From the IMG/VR virus record IMGVR_UViG_2728369608_000005: a DNA stretch of 36,144 nucleotides; one strand, 5' to 3'. The position numbers and the translations under genes were made by a program. The first letter of the stretch is position 1. Each line of letters starts with the position of its first letter. The stretch comes from a virus (lineage: Duplodnaviria; Heunggongvirae; Uroviricota; Caudoviricetes). The notes beneath the pieces were generated by a model that was given only the letters and a program-made list of their open reading frames with translations, made no database searches and had not been told where the DNA came from. Below are positions 5,507 to 36,144 of this stretch, one piece after another.

Positions 5507-6675
5507 TATTTTTTCTCCTTTATTACCGTGGACGTGCTGCCGTCCGGTTTATAGACGGTCAGCGTCTGGGTTTTTCCGGTCTTTTTACCTTTCTTCGCTT
5601 TGCCCTGCGTAACCGGCCCTCGTGCCACTTCCAGTTCGGTGATGTAGCCGCTGTTACGGTCAAACGCATGGCGGGCAGTAGTTATCAGCCATGGCCCGGA
5701 TAACTGACCAAAACCCACCAGTTCAATTTTGTTGCCTGCAGTCAACTGAGGCGTCCCCATCAGCGTCAGCGAGCCGTTCTGCTGGTATTCGTTATGCCTG
5801 GCCAGCGCCGAATCTGCTTTAATCCGGGCGCTGTCCGGATCACTGACGCGGCTGTTGACCTTCAGTGAGTCGGCACTGGTGACCTTACCGCCTTTGGTTT
5901 GTTTGTCGCTTTCGCTGGTACCGCCATCAGCTTCATAAACGATCAGCTTTTTATCACTGCTCTTCTGGTGTTTTACCTTCGCGGATTTGTAGACGCGGTT
6001 GATGGTGTCACGCAGGGAAAAGCTGGCCACATCCTGCGGCTTTAACTGCCTGATCGGCTCCTGACCGCGTAACGTGGCAAGATGAGAAAAAACCAGCTGG
6101 TCGCTGACCACTTTCACGGCATAACCATACTCGCTGGCCAGTCGGCGCAGGAAGCCCACGTCCGTTTCAGCATACTGGGTCACCCGGTCAATTTTGATGG
6201 ACTCAATACTGCCAACCAGCTTCAGCTGATGCTTTTTGGCAATCCGTCCGGCGATGGCCGCCAGCGTGGTGCTCTCGAAACCACGACTGGATTTTGTCCG
6301 CAGGGCGTTGTTGACCGACGTGGCCACGCCCCGGATAGCGACAACGGACGCGGGCGAACTCACCTCGATCTCGTCTATAGAGAACGTACCGCAGGACAGC
6401 AGCTTCTCGCCCTGATAACCCATTTTCAGCGTCAGCGTGTCACCCTTGCCCGGATACCACTTATCCAGCCAGCGGCCATCGGTGTCGTCCAGTTCCACCT
6501 CAATGGTATCGGACTCGCTTTTGATGTTATCGCTGTAGGTGACGCGGGTGACATAGGGGGCGATATCGGTGGTGATGTTCTTCTGCAGATACCATAGCGT
6601 GAACACCGGACTCAGAACATCGCTGACGCCGGTTAACGCTGATGCGGCTTGTGCAGGGCTGTTTATCTCAGCCAT
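5506..6675 (-). CDS. Tail protein, P2 gpD-like / Mu P-like
   Basis: 389 aa, located after tape measure and N-like genes. Confidence 0.6.
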   Translation of the reverse strand: MAEINSPAQAASALTGVSDVLSPVFTLWYLQKNITTDIAPYVTRVTYSDNIKSESDTIEVELDDTDGRWLDKWYPGKGDTLTLKMGYQGEKLLSCGTFSIDEIEVSSPASVVAIRGVATSVNNALRTKSSRGFESTTLAAIAGRIAKKHQLKLVGSIESIKIDRVTQYAETDVGFLRRLASEYGYAVKVVSDQLVFSHLATLRGQEPIRQLKPQDVASFSLRDTINRVYKSAKVKHQKSSDKKLIVYEADGGTSESDKQTKGGKVTSADSLKVNSRVSDPDSARIKADSALARHNEYQQNGSLTLMGTPQLTAGNKIELVGFGQLSGPWLITTARHAFDRNSGYITELEVARGPVTQGKAKKGKKTGKTQTLTVYKPDGSTSTVIKEKK

Positions 6676-6878
6676 GGGGCAATATCCTCTTCTGTACTGG
6701 CTTCTTCAGCCTCGATAACCGGAATCAGTAACAACAGCCCGGAGGGCAGCACCGGCGTGATGGCCACGTGTGGATTGGCGGCAATTATCCGGGGATAGCC
6801 CAGCGGGTCGCCGTAGTACTGCCATGCGAGAGAGTCCCAGCGCTCTCCGTCACGGGTGACATGTTCAAGAAACATCAC
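6663..6878 (-). CDS. Tail protein X-like small protein
   Basis: 71 aa with gpX-like motif (GERWDSLAWQYYGD ... IAANPHV). Confidence 0.55.
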   Translation of the reverse strand: MMFLEHVTRDGERWDSLAWQYYGDPLGYPRIIAANPHVAITPVLPSGLLLLIPVIEAEEASTEEDIAPWLR

Positions 6879-7759: not shown

Positions 7760-10224
7760 CAGCTGTACCTCCTGCGTTGTTGCTGAGCCAGCAGACGCTC
7801 CAGCATTTTCTCCAGCTCATGCAGGCTCATATTCAGTGCGCCGGTCAACCCGTCAGGCGCTGCGGTTTCTTTGCCATTGAGGAAAAACTGAGGATTAAAG
7901 CTGACCTGGATACCGCCAGATGTTCCGCTGCCAGTTGCAGCTGCGCCACGACCTGAATATCCCGCCGCCATGATTTCCGGCGACGGGATACGGGGAACAT
8001 CCGGTGTCATTTCAGTGGCCAGACGCTGCCCGGCCAGTGCAGCAAGTGGTGTGGTGCGCTGCAGGCCGATAGCGGCCCCCTGCGCAATGTTGTCACCAAA
8101 GCCTATAAACACACGGCTCGGCGAATGAATGCCCAGCTTTTCCTTAAACCAGCCGCCAACACTGTCGCCCATGTCTGTGACGGTAGTTTTGAGCGACTCC
8201 CATTTGTTTTTGATGCCGTTTATTAACCCGTCGATAAGATGGCCACCGAAGTCGGTGAACTTCGCTGGCAGATCAACACCGAGGTATTTCAGCGCAGCCG
8301 CAAAGGCTTTATAGAGCAGACCAACCGGCGACCAGTTAATCAGCAGCTTACCAATCCCCACGACACCGCCATTAAACGCCTCTTTAATGTCAGCCCAGCG
8401 CTGTTTAAACCAGCTACTGACTGCGCCCCAGTTGCGATAAATAAGGTAAGCTGCTGCCGCGACGGCGGTGATGGCGAGACCAATGGGATTCATCAGCAGC
8501 GCCCGGCCAATCCAGAGAACGGCCCGCCCGGCGATCATAATGCCGCGAACCAGCCCACCTGACAGCACACCACCCAGTGTTCTGGCTCCTCTGGCGACGG
8601 CGCTGAAGCCGGTCACCAGCCAGCGGAGCTTACCGCCTTCACCGAGTGCAAGCGACAGTCGAAGCCAGTTGGCCCGCAGTAAAACGGCATTTTTCCAGAC
8701 GTTAACAAAGGGGGAAATAAGGAGATTCAGCCCCAGCTTGAGACCGATAGTGGCCATCTTGAAAGCGAGTAATGCTCCTACAACCTTTATGGAGCCGCTG
8801 ACGATTTGCGGGTTTGCCGCTATCCATTTGCCGACACTGTCCATTAAAGGAATAAAAGTCTCACCCAGTTGGATCAAGGCCGGGCGTAGTGACTCACCAA
8901 TGCTGATGGCTGCCTCGTTAAAACCAATCTGAGTTCTGCGCCAACGACCTTCGAGCGTATTATTTTGTTTTGCAGCATCCTTATCCAGCGTAGACATTGC
9001 TGACGGGGTATTCATTTCCTGCTTGCTGGAAAGGTATTTATCCCAGCCCTGACGCATTGACAGTAAATGGTTAACGGTCTGAATATCAGTGAAGACTTCT
9101 GCCAGACCAAATGACTCCATTAGCTTCTGCTGGCCTTCCTGATCGCCTCTTGAGCCTGCTGCTTTCCATTGCTGTAAAAACGCCTTACCTTTACCGTCGA
9201 TAAAACGGTTGGCAATCATCAGTGAGGCTTCATACTGTGAGAAGCCCTGAGCGACGTAATTCTGCATTGACCCCTGGTAATCCACCCCGGCTTTAGCATA
9301 TTTCTGGATGGTATCTCCGCGCCCCATCGCCGCCAGCCAGTTTGACATATTGGTGACGGCCTCTTCCGCTGAGCCGCTGCCTTTACCAACTTCCAGACTG
9401 GCGACGATCTGGGTTATGGCATCTTTGCCGTAAATACCACGTGCAGCGAAGGCTTTGGCCATACCAGGTAACGCTTTCGCCATATCCTTCAGTTCAAACG
9501 AGCCTAGCTTAGCCCCGGTTGCCGCAATCCCAAACGCCTGCTCCAGCTCTTTCGCATCGGTAATTTTCAGCGCATCGCTAAAGGCGTAGGTCATTTTTGC
9601 GAGGTCAGTCATATCCGCTTTGGTGGCCGTGGCCGCTTTACCGAGCATCCCGGCAAATTTAGCTGCCTGCTCCGGGTTCATACCATCGGCAACTAACTGA
9701 CCAACACCCCCTAGCAGCGACTCCTGGAGCTGATTGACCTGAAGGGATGCCCGACGAATGGCAGTACCGATGGCCTGTTCCTGCCTTGAATCCAGATCAC
9801 CAGTGACACTGATATCCCGCAACTGCGATTCAAACGAGGCATATTGTTTGACTGAGGCCATGACCGGTGCACCCAGTGTTCTGACGATGGCATAGGTTTC
9901 TGCTCCCTGGCCATAGAGCGCCATGCGGTTAGCTTTCAGCGCGTCACTGGTGGTTGATACTGCTGACAAACGGCGCTGCTGGCGCTCAATTTGCTCCATT
10001 GTGCGGCTTACCCGCAGCAGGTCGCTGTTGAGGCGCTGCATCCGGGAAGAGCCTAACTGGCCATAACGTTCAGTTGCACGAGTTAAGGCATTCTGGCGTT
10101 CCTGCAGGCGGCGCGATGTATCGCCCAGGGAATCTAGGGCGCGTCGGGTGCCACTGACGGCTGAGCGGAAGCTGCTCCCGACAATGCCGCCAATAATGAC
10201 GCCGACTGAAAATTCACTGGCCAC
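7759..10224 (-). CDS. Tail tape measure protein
   Basis: 821 aa, Ala/Gly-rich with hydrophobic segments, after the chaperone genes. Confidence 0.85.
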   Translation of the reverse strand: MASEFSVGVIIGGIVGSSFRSAVSGTRRALDSLGDTSRRLQERQNALTRATERYGQLGSSRMQRLNSDLLRVSRTMEQIERQQRRLSAVSTTSDALKANRMALYGQGAETYAIVRTLGAPVMASVKQYASFESQLRDISVTGDLDSRQEQAIGTAIRRASLQVNQLQESLLGGVGQLVADGMNPEQAAKFAGMLGKAATATKADMTDLAKMTYAFSDALKITDAKELEQAFGIAATGAKLGSFELKDMAKALPGMAKAFAARGIYGKDAITQIVASLEVGKGSGSAEEAVTNMSNWLAAMGRGDTIQKYAKAGVDYQGSMQNYVAQGFSQYEASLMIANRFIDGKGKAFLQQWKAAGSRGDQEGQQKLMESFGLAEVFTDIQTVNHLLSMRQGWDKYLSSKQEMNTPSAMSTLDKDAAKQNNTLEGRWRRTQIGFNEAAISIGESLRPALIQLGETFIPLMDSVGKWIAANPQIVSGSIKVVGALLAFKMATIGLKLGLNLLISPFVNVWKNAVLLRANWLRLSLALGEGGKLRWLVTGFSAVARGARTLGGVLSGGLVRGIMIAGRAVLWIGRALLMNPIGLAITAVAAAAYLIYRNWGAVSSWFKQRWADIKEAFNGGVVGIGKLLINWSPVGLLYKAFAAALKYLGVDLPAKFTDFGGHLIDGLINGIKNKWESLKTTVTDMGDSVGGWFKEKLGIHSPSRVFIGFGDNIAQGAAIGLQRTTPLAALAGQRLATEMTPDVPRIPSPEIMAAGYSGRGAAATGSGTSGGIQVSFNPQFFLNGKETAAPDGLTGALNMSLHELEKMLERLLAQQQRRRYS

Positions 10225-22974: not shown

Positions 22975-23692
22975 AGCTGCCGCCCCCCCATGTCAGATAA
23001 CGGGGGGCCAGTTCGTGCAGGATGCGCTGCGGATAATGACGGTTCTCCCGCCAGTTGGCAGTGCTGCGTCCGGCATTCACCGTGGCGACATGACCAAACC
23101 AGCGGGTGCTGTCCAGCCCCTGCTGCGAGGCCAGCCTCTTGTCCCGCTGTACCCAGCCCAGACCGCCGTTATAGCCCGACAGCGTCATGGCCATACGCTC
23201 GCAGCCGTTGGCGGCGCTGACGCGCTGCCACAGCCAGCGGTCATAACTGACCAGCGCCCGGATGGCCCATGCCGGATTAAACGGCTCACGGCTGTTAAGC
23301 CCCGGCATCAGCTGGCTTATCCAGTCGGCGGTGGCGGGCATAAACTGGGCCAGCCCCTGAGCGCCAGCCGGCGAGACCGCATCAGGTCGCCAGCCGCTTT
23401 CCTGATGCAGTTGCGCGGCGAAATCGGCCACTGGCGCAGACAGTCCCCATTCAAGCCGGGCATTACGGATCACATCATCGCGATACTGCAGCGCAGCCTG
23501 CGGAGGCTGCGCTGCGCGGGCCTGACTGAAGAAGCCGCCACACCAGAGCAGCCAGACAATCACCAGGTTGCCAGCAAGCTGCCACCAGAAGCTGTATTTA
23601 TCGTTACGTGGTTCTCCGTGTCTGATGGCGGTTACGCCCAGACCAAAGGCAAGCAGGATGATGAGGGTGATTTGAGGCCAGTTCATGGTCAC
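22964..23692 (-). CDS. Endolysin, lytic-transglycosylase (SLT) type with N-terminal hydrophobic segments
   Basis: SLT motif ESGWRPDAVSPAGAQGLAQFMP; two N-terminal hydrophobic stretches. Confidence 0.75.
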   Translation of the reverse strand: MTMNWPQITLIILLAFGLGVTAIRHGEPRNDKYSFWWQLAGNLVIVWLLWCGGFFSQARAAQPPQAALQYRDDVIRNARLEWGLSAPVADFAAQLHQESGWRPDAVSPAGAQGLAQFMPATADWISQLMPGLNSREPFNPAWAIRALVSYDRWLWQRVSAANGCERMAMTLSGYNGGLGWVQRDKRLASQQGLDSTRWFGHVATVNAGRSTANWRENRHYPQRILHELAPRYLTWGGGSCVD

Positions 23693-24039
23693 AGTCCTGT
23701 TGCCACAGCCAGACAGACCGCTGCAACAATCAGTGCACGGCGGATTAACGCAGCAGAAAATACAAGGTGAAGGCCGGTCTGCACAGGGAAGCGACCATCA
23801 GCCATCAGCCTGTCATCATGCTTCAGGTACTGACCGGGACGGGCTTTGGGGAAAAGCGAACGGTCAAGCCAGTAGCCCAATACTGCCGCCAGCGTGATGA
23901 GTGACAGCTTGTAGACAACCACCGGCAGCTGCTGGGGCGATACCAGACCGATGGTGCCGAGCAGCAGCACTGAGGTCAGCAGCCAGCCGCTGAGACGTGG
24001 CTTTTTAACAGGGGGAATGAATTTTTTCAGGTTTTTCAT
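23689..24039 (-). CDS. Holin-like membrane protein
   Basis: 116 aa with 2-3 predicted transmembrane helices, first gene of the late arm; AAGGAG Shine-Dalgarno 5 nt upstream. Confidence 0.6.
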   Translation of the reverse strand: MKNLKKFIPPVKKPRLSGWLLTSVLLLGTIGLVSPQQLPVVVYKLSLITLAAVLGYWLDRSLFPKARPGQYLKHDDRLMADGRFPVQTGLHLVFSAALIRRALIVAAVCLAVATGL

Positions 24040-24170
24040 GGGTGTCTCCTTGTTGTGTGGGAGACAGCATCACAAATGTGGCGGGATACGGATTTTAAAG
24101 CGCGTTATAAGTGTTCGCAGAGGGAAGCGGCCAGAATGGTGGCACACAAAACACAGGGGAGGCAAGCACG

Positions 24171-24494
24171 ATGACTGAACCGAAACAGACCGGTCTTAAA
24201 AAAGGGTTCCTCTTTGGGATCAGAACCGGAGAGCAGAATAAAACTTACACGCTAAGCGTGGATGCCAGTTGCCCAACCGAGGCGATTGCAGAACTGAGAA
24301 ACGCGCTGACGGCGCTTGAAACGCGAAGCAGCCATTTCGCCAGCGGAGAAAACAACGTCATGATGATTGGCAATGTGGCGGCGACATCACGATATAAAGC
24401 CGTACCTAATCCTACTACTCAGTTATCCGGCGACCAACGAAGACTGGAAGCGGAATCAGCAGTTCCCAGAACGGTTCTTCCTCACCAGTCTTAA
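24171..24494 (+). CDS. Hypothetical small protein (108 aa)
   Basis: ATG preceded by GGGGAGG at 8-nt spacing; divergent from the holin; last 80 bp overlap the 188-aa gene. Confidence 0.3.
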   Translation: MTEPKQTGLKKGFLFGIRTGEQNKTYTLSVDASCPTEAIAELRNALTALETRSSHFASGENNVMMIGNVAATSRYKAVPNPTTQLSGDQRRLEAESAVPRTVLPHQS

Positions 24495-24981
24495 CCGGGG
24501 CCGCTTCTCCCGCCCAGTAAAGCCAGGCCCGGTGATATAATTCCAGCACCGGGCAATCACTGTTCAATAACCTCATATCTCCGCGATGCACCGGCTCATC
24601 TGTGATTACTTCATATATCGGTGCCGTTCTGATTTCGTCTTCGCCTCTCTCATCGGCCAGTAATGCCCGGAACTTCCTGACTTCACTCAGATGCTGACAG
24701 GCAAACAGTGACTGATAGCGGGAAGGTTTGTCAGGAAAATGGCTACGGCGAACTAACTCAAACACCAGACCGACCAGCAGACTTCTGCTGACTCCACTGT
24801 CATCTTCCATTTTAGGGCCGGGGTTATAGAGATAGTTATGACCGTGCTTGGAAAGACCATCGGGATACATCTGATGAAGGAAAGCGGCCAGCTCCGGCGC
24901 TTCAGGTTCGTATTTTCCGGTAATTACATGGCAAGGCGAAGGCAGACGATTAGCGGAATCAAGTGTGTAATACGTTCCCAT
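24415..24981 (-). CDS. Hypothetical protein (188 aa), unknown function
   Basis: ATG-initiated ORF immediately upstream of the lysis/late arm; no family recognised. Confidence 0.55.
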   Translation of the reverse strand: MGTYYTLDSANRLPSPCHVITGKYEPEAPELAAFLHQMYPDGLSKHGHNYLYNPGPKMEDDSGVSRSLLVGLVFELVRRSHFPDKPSRYQSLFACQHLSEVRKFRALLADERGEDEIRTAPIYEVITDEPVHRGDMRLLNSDCPVLELYHRAWLYWAGEAAPVKTGEEEPFWELLIPLPVFVGRRITE

Positions 24982-25224
24982 TCAGAAAACAATCCTTATC
25001 GAACAAACACTGCACGTAGGTAACACATCCAGTAAATCGCGTTAATAGAAAACAGTTATCCATAAGCCTCATCCTGACAATGAAAGAACGACCAGCCCGG
25101 TGCGGTAACACCAGGCTGGTCATCAACCCACAGGTATGCACTGTGAGCCGACCAGGGTTCAGTCAGTCTCGCGAGACCAGACTAGCCTGCCATATTTTCA
25201 CTGATTGCAAAAGGCTTACGGATA

Positions 25225-25995
25225 ATGAAAGAACAATCTTTACCCATCGTTCCATGGATTGGCGGCAAACGTCGTCTGGCTAAGCATATTCTGCCGCTGT
25301 TCCCGGCCCATACCTGCTATGTGGAGCCGTTCTGTGGGGCCGCTGCGCTCTATTTTCTTAAGACACCCAGCAAGACCGAAGTCATTAACGATATCAACGG
25401 GGAACTGGTGAACCTCTATCGGGTGGTCAAGCATCATCTGGAAGAATTTGTTCGCCAGTTCAAATGGGCGCTGGTCAGCCGTCAGATTTACAAATGGTTG
25501 CAGGATACGCCGGAAGAAACTCTCACCGACATTCAGCGGGCGGCCCGGTTCTACTACCTGCAGAAACAGGCGTTTGGCGGCAAGGTGGCCGATCACTCGT
25601 TCGGAACCTCCACCACAAGTGCGCCGCGCTTTAACCTCCTGCGCATCGAAGAAGAACTGTCGATGGCACACCTGCGCCTGTCGAGAACGCTGATAGAGCA
25701 TCTGGACTGGCACCAGTGCATAGAGCGATATGATCGCCCGCATACGCTGTTCTACTGTGACCCACCATACTGGGGAACAGAGGGCTATGGTGTGGAGTTC
25801 GGGCTGGAAAACTATGATCACATGGCAGATTTAGCGCGAAGGATCAAAGGGAAGATGATTATATCAGTGAACGATATCCCGGAAATGCGGCAGGTATTCA
25901 ACGGTCTGAACATGCAGTCGGTTGATATCAGCTACAACCTTAAGGTAACAGGTAAACCCAGCCCGAAGAAAGAGCTGGTAATTTGTAATTTTTGA
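25225..25995 (+). CDS. DNA adenine methyltransferase, Dam family, no adjacent restriction gene
   Basis: N-terminal PWIGGKRRL and FCGAAALYF motifs and catalytic DPPY (FYCDPPYWGT). Confidence 0.85.
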   Translation: MKEQSLPIVPWIGGKRRLAKHILPLFPAHTCYVEPFCGAAALYFLKTPSKTEVINDINGELVNLYRVVKHHLEEFVRQFKWALVSRQIYKWLQDTPEETLTDIQRAARFYYLQKQAFGGKVADHSFGTSTTSAPRFNLLRIEEELSMAHLRLSRTLIEHLDWHQCIERYDRPHTLFYCDPPYWGTEGYGVEFGLENYDHMADLARRIKGKMIISVNDIPEMRQVFNGLNMQSVDISYNLKVTGKPSPKKELVICNF

Positions 25996-26008
25996 AAGAG
26001 GTAGTTAA

Positions 26009-26036
26009 AGGTGGTGGTGCATCTGCAGCACCACCT
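26009..26036. terminator. Hairpin between convergent Dam and lipoprotein genes (possible bidirectional terminator)
   Basis: AGGTGGTGGTGCA / TGCAGCACCACCT, 13-bp stem with one mismatch; weak T-tracts on both sides. Confidence 0.4.
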
Positions 26037-26042
26037 AAACAT

Positions 26043-26576
26043 TTAATCCTGCCTTGGACAAGTCCAATAATCATTATCTGGCTCTGGTGAATAAGCTTTC
26101 AAACAACCTGCTCGCGGGGTCTTACCATCATCTGTCATAGGAACTTTTTCCTTATCAAGTTTCACGGTCAGGTCTCCACCAGGAACATCCGTTTTATCGA
26201 AAAAAACAGCCTGACATGCTGATTTAGATATTTTCACTTCGTGGGCATTATTTGATATGAACAAATAACAATTATGACCAGAGGCTATGTAGTCACTTGG
26301 AATATTATTTTCGTCTTTAATATGAAACTGCACCGTTGTCACCGGGCGTTCGCTATCCTCGGATACTTCGACTTTTTCAAAACTGTCCGCGTACTTATCC
26401 AGGCCGGGGAGTTGTTGGCGAATAAACGGTAATTCGCGATTTACAACCGGATTATCTGTTTCAACGCTAAAAACCGCGTGCTCCTTAGCTGTGGTGGACG
26501 TATCAGCAGGATCGGTATTATCTCCACACCCAGATAAAACAAATATCAACGGTAAAAATAATTTGCGCATAGTCAT
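26043..26576 (-). CDS. Lipoprotein moron (candidate lysogenic-conversion / superinfection-exclusion protein)
   Basis: Signal peptide with lipobox LSGC; gene visibly AT-rich versus surrounding phage DNA; 35 bp downstream of the repressor on the same strand. Second ATG at 26570 has better Shine-Dalgarno spacing. Confidence 0.75.
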   Translation of the reverse strand: MTMRKLFLPLIFVLSGCGDNTDPADTSTTAKEHAVFSVETDNPVVNRELPFIRQQLPGLDKYADSFEKVEVSEDSERPVTTVQFHIKDENNIPSDYIASGHNCYLFISNNAHEVKISKSACQAVFFDKTDVPGGDLTVKLDKEKVPMTDDGKTPRAGCLKAYSPEPDNDYWTCPRQD

Positions 26577-26611
26577 GTCCTTATACCTCTAATGTTCTTA
26601 ATAGGAACAGA

Positions 26612-27022
26612 TTAACCCGTATTTTTTAATCTTTCGAACGCTGCGGACAGCTCCTTAAGCTGTTTTTCCATATCAATCATTCGCTGTTTTTCCTCAGCGC
26701 CTCGCAGCAACTCTTTTCGCACCTCTGGCTCCAGTTGGTTGAGCAGCTCCAATAACTTCAGATCAGACTGGTTGAAATGCTGCTCCTGATTAGCTGGCTG
26801 TGCTTTCTCTACCCCAACAGCTTCCCCTTTACCAGTAAGTAGCCAATCTATTGATATGTTCAAATGGGTGCTTAGCGCAACAAGAGCCTCTGCATTAGGT
26901 TCTCTCTCTCCACGCAGATAGTTTTGAAGTGAGCGATATGGAATTTTTGACAAGTCTGACAATGCCTTAATTGTCAGACCCTTAGCATCCATCGCTTCGC
27001 GCAATCTCTCTTTTATACTCAT
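26612..27022 (-). CDS. Phage repressor, XRE-family HTH
   Basis: Internal ATG at 27022 (MSIKERLREAMDAKGLTIKALSDLSKIPYRSLQNYLRGER, 136 aa); divergent from the early operon. Confidence 0.75.
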   Translation of the reverse strand: MSIKERLREAMDAKGLTIKALSDLSKIPYRSLQNYLRGEREPNAEALVALSTHLNISIDWLLTGKGEAVGVEKAQPANQEQHFNQSDLKLLELLNQLEPEVRKELLRGAEEKQRMIDMEKQLKELSAAFERLKNTG

Positions 27023-28558: not shown

Positions 28559-30328
28559 ATGAGTGCCGCCCTGACTGAACGACTGGTTTATGTTGCCCGC
28601 GCGGCACGTGACGCGGGGCATGGTAAGCGTGGTGCGATATATGATGCCGCCTGCGCCGAACTGGGCATTTCCCGCGCCACCCTGCTGCGCAAGCTGAAGG
28701 AGGTATCAGTGACTGACAAACGTAAAAAACGCGCCGATGCCGGGCGCAGTGCCCTGAGCCGCGACGAAGCCGCGCTGATATCTGCCACGCTGCGCGAGGC
28801 CACCCGTAAGAACGGTAAGCGCCTGTATTCCATCGCGGATGCGGTGGAGACCCTGCGGTCAAACGGCTTTATCACTGCTGGCAGAACGGACGAGGCCACA
28901 GGCGAGTTTTTCCCGCTGTCCGAGGACACCATCAGCCGCGCCCTGCGGAACTATGGTCTGCACCCGGAACAGCTTGACGCACCGGCCCCGTCGTCCGAGA
29001 TGGCCAGCCTGCATCCCAATCACGTCTGGGAGATTGATGCCTCACTTTGTACGCTTTACTACCTGAGCAACGGCCATAAAGGGTTGCAGGTGATGGACAG
29101 CTCGAAGTTCTACAAGAACAAGCCTGCCAACATCGCCCGCATCGCCAGTGACCGCGTGTGGAGTTACGAGATTACCGACCATACCAGCGGCTGGATTTAC
29201 GTTGAGTACGTGATGGGTGCGGAATCTGGTGAGAACCTCTGTTCTGTGCTTATCAACGCCATGCAGGAGCGCGGCGGCGCGGACGTGCTGCACGGCGTGC
29301 CGAAAATACTCTACCTTGATCCCGGTTCGGCGAACACCGCTGGCATGACGAAAAACATGTGCCGCTCGCTGGGCATCAATCTGATAGCGCACAAGCCGCA
29401 TAACGCCCGCGCCACCGGGCAGGTGGAAAAGGCCCGTGACATTATCGAACGTAAACTGGAGCCGGGTCTCAAATTCCAGCCGGTTCATAGCCTGGACGAA
29501 CTGAACGCGCTGGCGGTGAAATGGCGCAGCCACTTTAACGCCACGGCGGTCCACAGCCGCCACGGTAAAACCCGCACGGATATCTGGCTGAAGATTACTG
29601 CTGGCCAGCTGAAAAAAGCGCCATCCGTTGAGGTTTGCCGCGAACTGGCGGTGGCCGCACCGGAACTCCGTAAGGTCACACCAAAACTGCGCGTCTCGTT
29701 CCGGGGCAATGAGTTTGACGTTTCGACGGTACCGGGCGTACTGGTCGGCGAAAAACTGATGATTACCCGTAACCCGTGGCGCAGCGATGTGGCGCAGGTG
29801 GTGCTGACCGGTGAGGACGGTCACGAGACGTTCTTCCTAGTCGAGGAGGTCAGAAAGAACGAGTTCGGCTTTGCCGAAAGCGCGGCGGTATTTGGCGAAA
29901 ACTACAAAGCCCTGCCGGAGACCCCGGCGCAGACGGCGGCAAAAGAAATCGAAGAGCTGGTTACGGGCACCGATAACGCCACCGATGCAGCTGCTGCACG
30001 CAAGGCGAAGGCGCTGCCGTTCGGCGGGCGACTTGACCCGTACAAACATATCGACGACACCACGCTTCCGGCCTATATGCCGAAGCGCGGTCAGGCTTCA
30101 GACGTGCGCGGGCCGCGTATTGAGCAGCGTCCGCTGACCCATGTGGAGGCGGCGAAAGCCCTGCGCGAGAAGTTTGGCGCTAACGGCCATATCTGGACGC
30201 CGGAACATTACCGCCAGTTAACGGCACAGTACCCGGACGGCGTACCGGAAGCCGCTCTGGATGAGGTCATGGTCACCCTGACCACTCCGGCCCGCAACAG
30301 CGTTATCAGCATCGTTAACGGTAACTGA
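28559..30328 (+). CDS. DDE transposase (Mu A-like function)
   Basis: 589 aa; candidate DDE residues in HVWEIDAS, LYLDPGSANT and a downstream Glu; followed by the B-like ATPase. Confidence 0.8.
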   Translation: MSAALTERLVYVARAARDAGHGKRGAIYDAACAELGISRATLLRKLKEVSVTDKRKKRADAGRSALSRDEAALISATLREATRKNGKRLYSIADAVETLRSNGFITAGRTDEATGEFFPLSEDTISRALRNYGLHPEQLDAPAPSSEMASLHPNHVWEIDASLCTLYYLSNGHKGLQVMDSSKFYKNKPANIARIASDRVWSYEITDHTSGWIYVEYVMGAESGENLCSVLINAMQERGGADVLHGVPKILYLDPGSANTAGMTKNMCRSLGINLIAHKPHNARATGQVEKARDIIERKLEPGLKFQPVHSLDELNALAVKWRSHFNATAVHSRHGKTRTDIWLKITAGQLKKAPSVEVCRELAVAAPELRKVTPKLRVSFRGNEFDVSTVPGVLVGEKLMITRNPWRSDVAQVVLTGEDGHETFFLVEEVRKNEFGFAESAAVFGENYKALPETPAQTAAKEIEELVTGTDNATDAAAARKAKALPFGGRLDPYKHIDDTTLPAYMPKRGQASDVRGPRIEQRPLTHVEAAKALREKFGANGHIWTPEHYRQLTAQYPDGVPEAALDEVMVTLTTPARNSVISIVNGN

Positions 30329-34071: not shown

Positions 34072-34489
34072 GCAGCGTCTTATTCAACTCATCCATATTG
34101 CCCGCAATGACCTCCAGATGGATGAGGACACCTACCGCCAGATGCTACAGGGGCTGACCGGCAAAGCCTCAACCAAAGGGATGGATACCCCACAGCTAAA
34201 CCGCGTGCTGGAATCCATGAAAAATAAAGGCTTTCGCATTAAGCCTGCCGGGAAAGCCAAGTCCGGCTTACCGCTGGATAGTCATCCGCAGTCAAAGAAA
34301 ATCCGTGCGCTATGGCTTGAAATGGCTGCCGCAGGCATCGTCCGAGACAGTTCAGAGCAGGCGCTGGCGCTGTGGGTTAAACGGGAAACAGGCATCAGCG
34401 CGTTACGCTGGCTCAGCAATGAGCAGGCAAGTAGCGTGATTGAGAAACTGAAGAAGTGGCAGCGCAGAGCTGCGGGAGTGAAGCAATGA
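34061..34489 (+). CDS. gemA: GemA-like regulatory protein (Mu gp16-like)
   Basis: ATG at 34061 after AGGAG; RLIQLIHIARNDLQMDEDTYRQML ... KKIRALW ... ALRWLSNEQASSVIEKLKKWQ. Confidence 0.75.
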   Translation: MMTKQRLIQLIHIARNDLQMDEDTYRQMLQGLTGKASTKGMDTPQLNRVLESMKNKGFRIKPAGKAKSGLPLDSHPQSKKIRALWLEMAAAGIVRDSSEQALALWVKRETGISALRWLSNEQASSVIEKLKKWQRRAAGVKQ

Positions 34490-34875
34490 GTGACCTGAAT
34501 CAGTTTCGTAGTAAAGGGCCGGAACTGTTGGTAGAACTGGCACAGCATACCTCTGAGACCGTCCGCGAGATTATTGATATCGAACCCGCAGTTGCCGACC
34601 AGATTGGTCAGGCCGTCGCGAACCGCATGATGCAGGTCTGGGGTGGGCAAAACGTCTATTTTCCGATGGGCATGGTCTGGAAGGTCAGTCAGCGCGACCG
34701 GGAAATCTTCCTGGAGTTTGACGGACGCAACCATCACGAACTGGCCCGCAAATTCGGTGTTTCACTACAGTGGGTTTACAGCGTGGTGAAGCGGGTCAGA
34801 AAAGAAGAATTGGATCGGATGCAGGGCAAACTGTTTGATGGTGACTCTGATTCAGAGAAGGTGGAAAATAGCTAA
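34486..34875 (+). CDS. mor: Mor/C-family transcriptional activator
   Basis: 129 aa from the ATG at 34486; GGQNVYFP ... REIFLEFDGRNHHELARKFGVSLQWVYSVVKRVR. Confidence 0.75.
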   Translation: MSDLNQFRSKGPELLVELAQHTSETVREIIDIEPAVADQIGQAVANRMMQVWGGQNVYFPMGMVWKVSQRDREIFLEFDGRNHHELARKFGVSLQWVYSVVKRVRKEELDRMQGKLFDGDSDSEKVENS

Positions 34876-35224: not shown

Positions 35225-35230
35225 ATGAGT

Positions 35231-35256
35231 GGGGGGCATCGTCCCCCTTAATTTTC
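35231..35256 (+). terminator. Rho-independent terminator at the end of the early operon
   Basis: GGGGGG-catcgt-CCCCC hairpin followed by TTAATTTT, directly after the stop at 35224. Confidence 0.5.
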
Positions 35257-35320
35257 ATATACTGTAAATGAATTACATAACCTTTTGTTTGTCTCTTCCC
35301 ATCACGTACCATAAAGTCCC

Positions 35321-35356
35321 ATTTATCTTACGGTACCCCCTATATTTATCTCACGT
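35321..35356. repeat. Terminal direct repeats, candidate transposase-binding sites
   Basis: ATTTATCTTACGG (35321..35333) and ATTTATCTCACGT (35344..35356); element ends ...TCTAATCA at 35363. Confidence 0.5.
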
Positions 35357-35363
35357 CTAATCA

Positions 35364-36144
35364 GGCGGCGAAAGTGGGCGGCATTGTTGCCAACAACACC
35401 TATCCGGCAGATTTCATCTACCAGAACATGATGATTGAGAGCAACATCATTCACGCCGCGCATCAGAACGACGTGAACAAACTGCTGTTTCTCGGATCGT
35501 CCTGTATCTACCCGAAACTGGCAAAACAGCCGATGGCAGAAAGCGAGTTATTGCAGGGTACGCTGGAGCCGACTAACGAGCCTTATGCTATTGCCAAAAT
35601 CGCCGGGATCAAACTGTGCGAATCTTACAACCGCCAGTATGGACGCGATTATCGCTCGGTCATGCCGACCAACCTGTATGGCCCGCATGACAACTTCCAC
35701 CCGAGTAATTCGCATGTGATCCCTGCATTGCTGCGTCGCTTCCACGAGGCGACGGCACAGAATGCACCGGACGTGGTGGTGTGGGGCAGCGGTACACCGA
35801 TGCGCGAATTTCTGCACGTCGATGATATGGCGGCGGCGAGCATTCATGTGATGGAGCTGGCGCACGAAGTCTGGCTGGAGAACACCCAACCGATGCTGTC
35901 GCACATTAACGTCGGCACGGGCGTTGACTGCACTATCCGCGAGCTGGCGCAAACCATCGCCAAAGTGGTGGGTTACAAAGGTCGGGTGGTTTTTGATGCC
36001 AGTAAACCGGATGGTACACCGCGCAAACTGCTGGATGTGACACGCCTGCATCAGCTTGGCTGGTATCACGAAATCTCACTGGAAGCGGGGCTCGCCAGCA
36101 CTTACCAGTGGTTCCTTGAGAATCAAGACCGCTTTCGGGGGTAA
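35364..36144 (+). pseudogene. fcl: GDP-L-fucose synthase gene, 5'-truncated by the prophage insertion
   Basis: Reading frame from 35365 encodes [26 protein letters not shown]... to the C-terminus ...[11 protein letters not shown]; the N-terminal ~62 codons are absent from the window. Confidence 0.85.

Follow-up and report, generated by a model that had tools for sequence, protein, structure and literature searches.

This report concerns two convergent genes, one for a 188-aa protein of the family DUF2441 and one for a small partner protein, in a 36,144-nt stretch of Caudoviricetes DNA (IMG/VR record IMGVR_UViG_2728369608_000005; the window). Pfam DUF2441 and the SCOP "BC2332-like" family were both founded on the structure of BC2332 from Bacillus cereus (PDB 2AUA); a crystal structure for the family was released in 2005. 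Pfam lists DUF2441 in the ADP-ribosyltransferase (ART) clan (PMC7955679), SCOP treats the BC2332-like proteins as an ADP-ribosylation family (PMC3000352), and a reverse-template method matched the pocket of 2AUA to the catalytic sites of diphtheria toxin, exotoxin A and cholix toxin (PMC3024214). In the searched literature no biochemical function was found for DUF2441, which is named in three papers, none of them functional, and the papers on ARTs, prophages and abortive infection, together with a 2026 defense-discovery paper, do not mention the family. DUF2441/BC2332 as a family and ART toxin/antidote modules as a kind are thus already known; the partner family, the invariant convergent pairing and the cassette structure described here were not found in the searched family libraries or literature. 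The two genes form a horizontally mobile accessory cassette (a "moron") in cargo slots of temperate phages, and we see an even chance that it is a two-gene conflict cassette, in which an ART-fold effector is counteracted or regulated by a cognate small protein.

At the sequence level the pair belongs to none of the modules DarT-DarG, ParT-ParS, MbcT-MbcA (RES) and CmdTAC: the 188-aa protein has no match to the Pfam families DarT (DUF4433) or RES, and PADLOC has no match for the pair. The combination that defines DarTG, a DUF4433 DarT with a macrodomain DarG, is absent. More generally, in contrast to the ART toxin/antitoxin (TA) modules, the partner is neither a macrodomain nor an Xre/COG5642 protein, nor is it an antitoxin of the chaperone-dependent type, and the genes are convergent instead of forming an operon. 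BC2332 itself is 22% identical to the 188-aa protein, has a lysine where the present clade has E124, and is not known to have this small partner.

Tail-to-tail genes with 3'-overlapping transcripts are a feature of the type I TA systems txpA/RatA and bsrG/SR4 of Bacillus prophages and of convergent restriction-modification pairs. The DUF2441 pair shares the tail-to-tail layout, from which overlapping transcripts are predicted, and the carriage in prophages. However, the antitoxin of a type I system is a non-coding RNA, whereas the partner is a conserved protein under purifying selection without an Rfam match (a scan of 23600-25400 gave sub-threshold chance matches only); likewise, the type I toxin is a small membrane peptide, whereas the toxin candidate here is an enzyme-like protein of 188 aa. 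With BstA/aba and the morons between Q and holin of lambdoid prophages, the pair has in common the use of prophage hot spots for accessory cargo. As in BstA/aba, one element of the lambdoid DUF2441 loci is placed where it could be switched on by the late transcription of the prophage itself, but aba is DNA and not a protein, BstA has no sequence relationship to the pair, and the likeness is purely architectural. The anti-CRISPR ADP-ribosyltransferase AcrIF11 is 10% identical to the 188-aa protein, belongs to another family and occurs in another genomic setting, and no aca regulator is present here. By analogy, AcrIF11 and the T4 proteins Alt, ModA and ModB may serve as models for a use of DUF2441 in the lytic cycle, which is weighed below.

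An ART-fold protein and its convergent partner

The elements of the pair are located as follows.

24415..24981, (-) strand: DUF2441 gene, 188 aa, ATG start; putative effector of the cassette
24171..24494, (+) strand: partner gene, 107 aa plus stop codon, start ATG 24171; unannotated small-protein family
24156..24162, (+) strand: Shine-Dalgarno sequence GGGGAGG, 8 nt before the partner ATG, read from the sequence
24415..24494, both strands: convergent overlap of the two coding regions, 80 bp

Both open reading frames (ORFs), the overlap and the strong Shine-Dalgarno sequence are present where the first-pass annotation of this DNA had described them; its "108-aa" plus-strand ORF is real, with a length of 107 aa plus the stop codon. 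In the mechanical ORF list this ORF begins at an upstream GTG (24111) and not at the ATG. A purine-rich, Shine-Dalgarno-like stretch can be seen by eye ahead of the aligned ATG in the upstream regions of other loci too. The stop-to-stop distance ranges across lineages from a gap of 20 nt to an overlap of 107 nt, so the tail-to-tail layout is conserved and the 80-bp overlap itself is not.

The first-pass annotation had placed the 188-aa protein in no recognizable family. It does have one: residues 71-158 score 29.1 bits with DUF2441 (PF10386), of the ART clan, for which the gathering cut-off is 25, and the protein matches phrog_5663 (1.7e-63). Among the PHROGs, only families of unknown function are recovered for this protein and none for the partner. 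The 188-aa protein has 25 close cluster matches, and every close homologue carries PF10386. The family as a whole comprises 1724 cluster representatives at 50% identity in a large library, mostly stand-alone proteins of 170-190 aa. The 188-aa protein has the three-dimensional fold of 2AUA, with the split beta-sheet of the ART superfamily. Its closest fold match outside the family is the pertussis-like ArtA, and a fold search of DUF2441 against viral structures returned uncharacterized family members only.

In 34 DUF2441 members (about 34% mean column identity), E75, R78, R88, Y155, W156 and E173 are invariant. In all 34, position 93 holds an aromatic residue and position 173 a glutamate, while H46 is found in 30/34 and G47 in 33/34. 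Judged by alignment only, the spacing H46...F/Y93...E173 looks like an H-Y-E triad, and H46-G47, R88, F93 and E173 are candidate active-site residues; on this pattern the protein would be enzymatically competent. In a representative library, one 572-aa protein (P0153) carries a CHAT caspase-like domain at residues 51-323 (1.7e-28) fused to a C-terminal DUF2441 domain at 390-571. CHAT domains are typical of conflict systems, and the fusion is a hint that larger conflict proteins can use DUF2441 as their effector module.

The partner has no match in Pfam, PHROG, NCBIfam or PADLOC, and no DNA-binding domain was matched in it. Its homologues fall into 28 clusters by single-sequence search and 92 by profile search, are 64-110 aa long and are all called "hypothetical". 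The ratio of nonsynonymous to synonymous substitution rates (dN/dS) is 0.13-0.23, as estimated over the 81 codons outside the overlap with DUF2441 from orthologues of 55-60% amino acid identity with saturated synonymous sites; the partner gene is under purifying selection. A lack of conservation, which the first-pass annotation had considered for both ORFs, is thus not what was found: both have homologue clusters, neither is a chance ORF, and both genes are real.

The partner is a small alpha/beta protein. Its conserved core comprises residues 1-77 (24171-24401) and measures about 66-77 aa across the family. It consists, in order, of an N-terminal LFG-type motif, a YTLSV/FVLEV strand, an AIxxLxxAL helix and two more strands. 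Residues 78-107 form a tail that reads antisense into the DUF2441 gene. Many orthologues end at about residue 77-80, so the tail that makes the 80-bp overlap is a lineage-specific read-through and not a conserved part. Between some partner variants the C-terminal halves have been swapped. The gene is unannotated in KP12 (L001, OM835952.1) and in CFSAN051542 (L002, NZ_CP020835.1), where the locus tags skip RS08850; in E. coli 730V1 and an Enterobacter kobei plasmid (H36, H52), a "hypothetical protein" listed beside DUF2441 may be the partner.

The two genes are strictly linked. Hidden Markov models (HMMs) of both families were built and run on all ORFs of 67 loci: the partner lies beside DUF2441 in 49/49 loci where it was detected, and the genes are convergent every time. 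Each partner protein that was traced by identity (Pseudomonas, Serratia, Yersinia) likewise faces a DUF2441 gene. The pairwise identity matrices of the two proteins are correlated (Mantel r = 0.81, a value reached by 0/2000 permutations), and the pairing extends to DUF2441 proteins with as little as about 33-38% identity to the 188-aa protein. DUF2441 is broken beside an intact partner in three loci (L007, L013, L016), and the reverse holds in one (L011). The former comprise interruption by an insertion sequence (Erwinia tracheiphila), a frameshift (Plautia symbiont) and a stop codon (Sodalis); the decayed cassettes were found in host-restricted bacteria.

A mobile cassette in prophage cargo slots

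In the window the pair occupies the interval between the holin gene and a Dam-type methylase gene, where the boundaries of the inserted DNA can be drawn by comparison with an empty site.

24114..25080, both strands: accessory cassette, 967 bp, replacing 30 bp of the CFS3292 empty site (BLAST)
24096..24111, (+) strand: left direct repeat TAAAnCGCGTTAwwAG, 16 nt, imperfect
25033..25048, (+) strand: right direct repeat TAAAnCGCGTTAwwAG, 16 nt, imperfect
25087..25124, (-) strand: strong terminator-like hairpin, 17-bp GC-rich stem followed by a T-rich tract; backbone between cassette and dam

The prophage of E. coli CFS3292 that provides the empty site is otherwise 91-96% identical to the present one. 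The bracketing repeat is present there as a single copy, and copies containing GCGTTAwwAG flank the cargoes of the slot; in the window the motif GCGTTAWWAG occurs just 2 times, against 0.11 expected by chance. The cassette has a GC content of 50.8% and a GC content at third codon positions (GC3) of about 0.5, compared with 56.8% for the late arm and a GC3 of 0.6-0.7 for the neighboring genes. Other cargoes occupy the same slot: E. coli S12 has a different 182-aa protein with a weak match to a 2TM defense-effector model, and phage PhiKM has a P-loop-like 242-aa protein plus a 71-aa protein. The holin-Dam intergenic region (24040-25224) appears as a variable cargo slot across the BcepMu-like prophages compared (L003, L004, L026, L030). 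Of 5426 complete E. coli genomes, 636 match a 3.1-kb query around the slot (23600-26700) and 33 carry the cassette.

The co-occurrence with Dam that the first-pass annotation had proposed fails on the B7A-type prophage (E. coli B7A, from a class of 27 genomes at 91.8% identity), which has the cassette and no Dam; furthermore, the cassettes of lambdoid and Mu-like prophages adjoin Q, Mor or cI. The hairpin at 25087-25124 is kept in the empty-site, S12 and B7A prophages. It presumably acts as a terminator and could keep leftward transcripts that start in the repressor region from entering the late operon.

The 49 paired loci lie in BcepMu-like, Mu-like and lambdoid prophages, with four kinds of neighbor: Q/tR', Mor, cI or holin. 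In Arsenophonus, Pantoea-like and Plautia symbionts the pair directly follows the Mor gene. In lambdoid prophages it lies between Q and holin, beside HicAB or a superinfection-immunity gene (Imm_superinfect), and in Pseudomonas prophages it is found downstream of cI near a putative AbiC (putAbiC), the partner being co-directional with cI. All of these positions are classic sites for morons. Temperate phages of Gordonia and Streptococcus carry more distant DUF2441 genes within their lysogeny or integration modules, in one case beside RelBE. The family also occurs on plasmids and chromosomes, and its range takes in soil actinomycete phages and plasmids, insect symbionts and plant pathogens. A side observation concerns a Yersinia lambdoid prophage with the pair (L024), where a RIP (Shiga-toxin-A-like) gene starts at 8135-8207, downstream of the lysis genes.

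These settings give some clues to expression. In lambdoid loci the partner starts 20-45 nt past a terminator-like hairpin with a U-run (L014, L015, L016, L021, L023, L048), and DUF2441 is antisense to late transcription. In L023 the hairpin is preceded by a pR'-like promoter, as judged by sequence pattern, so that the partner appears to be the first reading frame of the late transcript behind tR'. L015 and L021 have a second, related hairpin past the promoter side of DUF2441, and the whole cassette would thus be bracketed by terminators facing the direction of late transcription. In Mu-like loci the partner shares the strand of Mor and follows it at a distance of at most about 50 nt. The orientation is opposite in this window: DUF2441 points into the holin operon and the partner towards dam.

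The phage that carries the cassette here is a BcepMu-like transposable prophage with divergent arms, and its gene order is not that of Mu. The backbone genes that mark the arms are these.

23689..24039, (-) strand: holin, Pfam Holin_2-3 (6.9e-41); first lysis/late-arm gene, with the cassette 74 bp upstream of its start
25225..25995, (+) strand: Dam-type DNA adenine methylase, Pfam MethyltransfD12, PADLOC MTase_II; backbone neighbor outside the cassette
28559..30328: transposase, early arm
34456..34875, (+) strand: Mor/C-family late-gene activator, Pfam Mor (1.3e-42), near the right end of the early arm

The lysis and late genes, including an SLT endolysin, run leftwards from holin. Rightwards after Dam there follow a 177-aa gene and the repressor on the (-) strand and then the early arm, with a Ner-like regulator, DUF3102, the transposase, an AAA+ B-like protein, DUF3164, GemA, Mor and gp27. 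Over the 3.1-kb stretch 23600-26700 the identity is 99.9% with "Klebsiella phage KP12" and 100% with prophages of three complete E. coli genomes, and the relative PhiKM is classified as Bcepmuvirus. The KP12 record is labelled Vequintavirinae; its gene content is that of a Mu-like temperate phage.

Three further observations concern the prophage at large. The 177-aa ORF (26043-26576, (-) strand), directly downstream of the repressor, has an LSGC lipobox by eye, a partial match to PHROG 10002 and no Pfam match; it may be a lysogeny-phase membrane protein co-transcribed with the repressor, e.g., an exclusion factor. A host-type NAD-dependent epimerase gene starts at 35374, past the last phage-family gene (stretch 35225-35374); the phage-family genes stop before about 35374, so the right end of the prophage probably lies inside the window. 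At the other end (1-2924), tail-fibre and assembly genes on the (+) strand (1-942, 945-1388) face (-) strand ORFs (1360-1965, 1962-2924), a layout that recalls the invertible G segment of Mu with its alternative fibre ends.

Conflict cassette or other uses of the pair

That the pair is a conflict cassette is suggested by the ART fold, the strict pairing and co-variation, the mobility, the defense and TA neighbors, the relatives in lysogeny modules, the CHAT fusion and, weakly, the asymmetry of decay. Among the possibilities raised at first pass, a toxin/antitoxin-like pair or defense cargo fits a linked, mobile cassette in moron slots best; its functional side, namely an enzymatic activity, toxicity, neutralization by the partner and a role in defense, is what we infer from these features. 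DUF2441 would be a cytoplasmic, NAD+-using ART-fold effector or toxin, and the partner its cognate antidote or regulator. Since the genes abut or overlap tail-to-tail without a spacer, each transcript would have to end within or past the opposite gene, so that the two are predicted to overlap, and control probably combines neutralization at the protein level with convergent (antisense) transcription. The likeliest role is in conflict between phage and host or between phages: through abortive infection or exclusion the cassette may shield the lysogen against superinfecting phages, or it may stabilize itself in the manner of a TA system.

Several observations weigh against the conflict-cassette interpretation. 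The two genes are adjacent and co-inherited, as in type II TA systems, but classical type II modules are co-directional bicistronic operons with an autoregulating antitoxin, whereas these genes are always convergent. The structure of the partner shows no likeness to known antitoxins, and neither PADLOC v2 (E up to 1) nor NCBIfam has a match for either protein. On the effector side, H46 and E124 vary across the family, and with the tools used no canonical H-Y-E or R-S-E triad could be mapped. The partner was sought in the distant DUF2441 clades (Gordonia and Streptococcus temperate phages, viral contigs; L055-L067) and found in none of them. A scan of the cassette for sigma-70 promoters gave none above shuffled expectation for either gene. 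Finally, L011 (Pantoea stewartii, 6582-6737) has lost the N-terminal half of the partner by deletion and keeps a seemingly intact DUF2441, which argues against an obligate relation of lethal toxin and antidote.

The same L011 locus would fit an effector that leaves its host unharmed, and it enters a variant account that we consider quite unlikely: the cassette as an undescribed prophage immunity module. DUF2441 would then be a constitutive, host-harmless anti-phage effector, on in the lysogen, and the partner, placed behind the Q/tR' or Mor switch, would be made only, or at least mainly, when the resident prophage turns lytic. It would neutralize the effector while antisense read-through silenced the effector gene, and the resident would thereby discriminate between itself and superinfecting phages. 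The position of the lambdoid partner right after the hairpin, downstream of Q and the pR'-like promoter, leaves no space for a promoter of its own and speaks for such a switch, as does its place less than 50 nt after Mor on the same strand in Mu-like loci. However, the BcepMu-like cassette of this window is inverted relative to the late operon, the partner of the Pseudomonas prophages runs with cI, and the promoter and terminator assignments are sequence patterns only. Orientation cuts the other way for a use in the lytic cycle, with DUF2441 a phage ART that modifies a host protein or defense component and the partner its regulator or cofactor. This possibility, which we rate as unlikely, suits the arrangement in this window; in lambdoid and Mu-like prophages the cassette is reversed and DUF2441 is antisense to lytic transcription, which hardly suits a phage enzyme expressed late. 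Moreover, among the 50,697 records of a phage collection DUF2441 was found only in KP12 and, beside integrase or repressor, in Gordonia and Streptococcus records; the family occurs on plasmids and chromosomes too, and no Aca-type helix-turn-helix (HTH) regulator accompanies it.

A role in virulence by lysogenic conversion appears very unlikely. Here DUF2441 would be an ART exotoxin against eukaryotic cells, released on lysis, and indeed BC2332 was proposed as a possible enterotoxin by the structural-genomics authors (PMC3024214). The fold match to pertussis-like ArtA, the best outside the family, points the same way. In lambdoid prophages stx occupies the Q-holin position, which is also that of the cassette. 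Yet by inspection the 188-aa sequence shows neither a signal peptide nor a B subunit or translocation domain, the family has the broad range given above, from soil actinomycetes to insect symbionts and plant pathogens, and an exotoxin leaves the strictly linked intracellular partner unexplained. It is extremely improbable that the 188-aa protein is a late-gene regulator like Mu C, or the small ORF a chance reading frame beside an unrelated gene. The regulator idea, prompted at first pass solely by where the gene lies, at the start of the late arm, is rejected: no Mor or HTH domain was matched in either ORF (the first-pass annotation itself had seen no obvious Mor/C signature in the 188-aa protein), and the real Mor-family gene lies at 34456-34875. 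Most related prophages lack the cassette and keep their late genes. Against a chance ORF stand the conservation of the small gene, the purifying selection on it and its invariable pairing with DUF2441.

For the DUF2441 proteins of enterobacterial and Pseudomonas prophages, the present analysis supplies a strictly linked partner gene, overlooked by most annotation pipelines, together with a defined mobile cassette and empty sites that serve as natural controls. DUF2441 can thereby be tested directly as a new conflict system built on an ADP-ribosyltransferase; if the cassette were inert, it would be one more moron of unknown function. Two of its traits are unusual for toxin/antidote pairs, namely the convergent, spacer-less layout and the position of the partner right behind the lambdoid late-gene switch, and either might turn out to be a new means by which a prophage escapes its own weapon.

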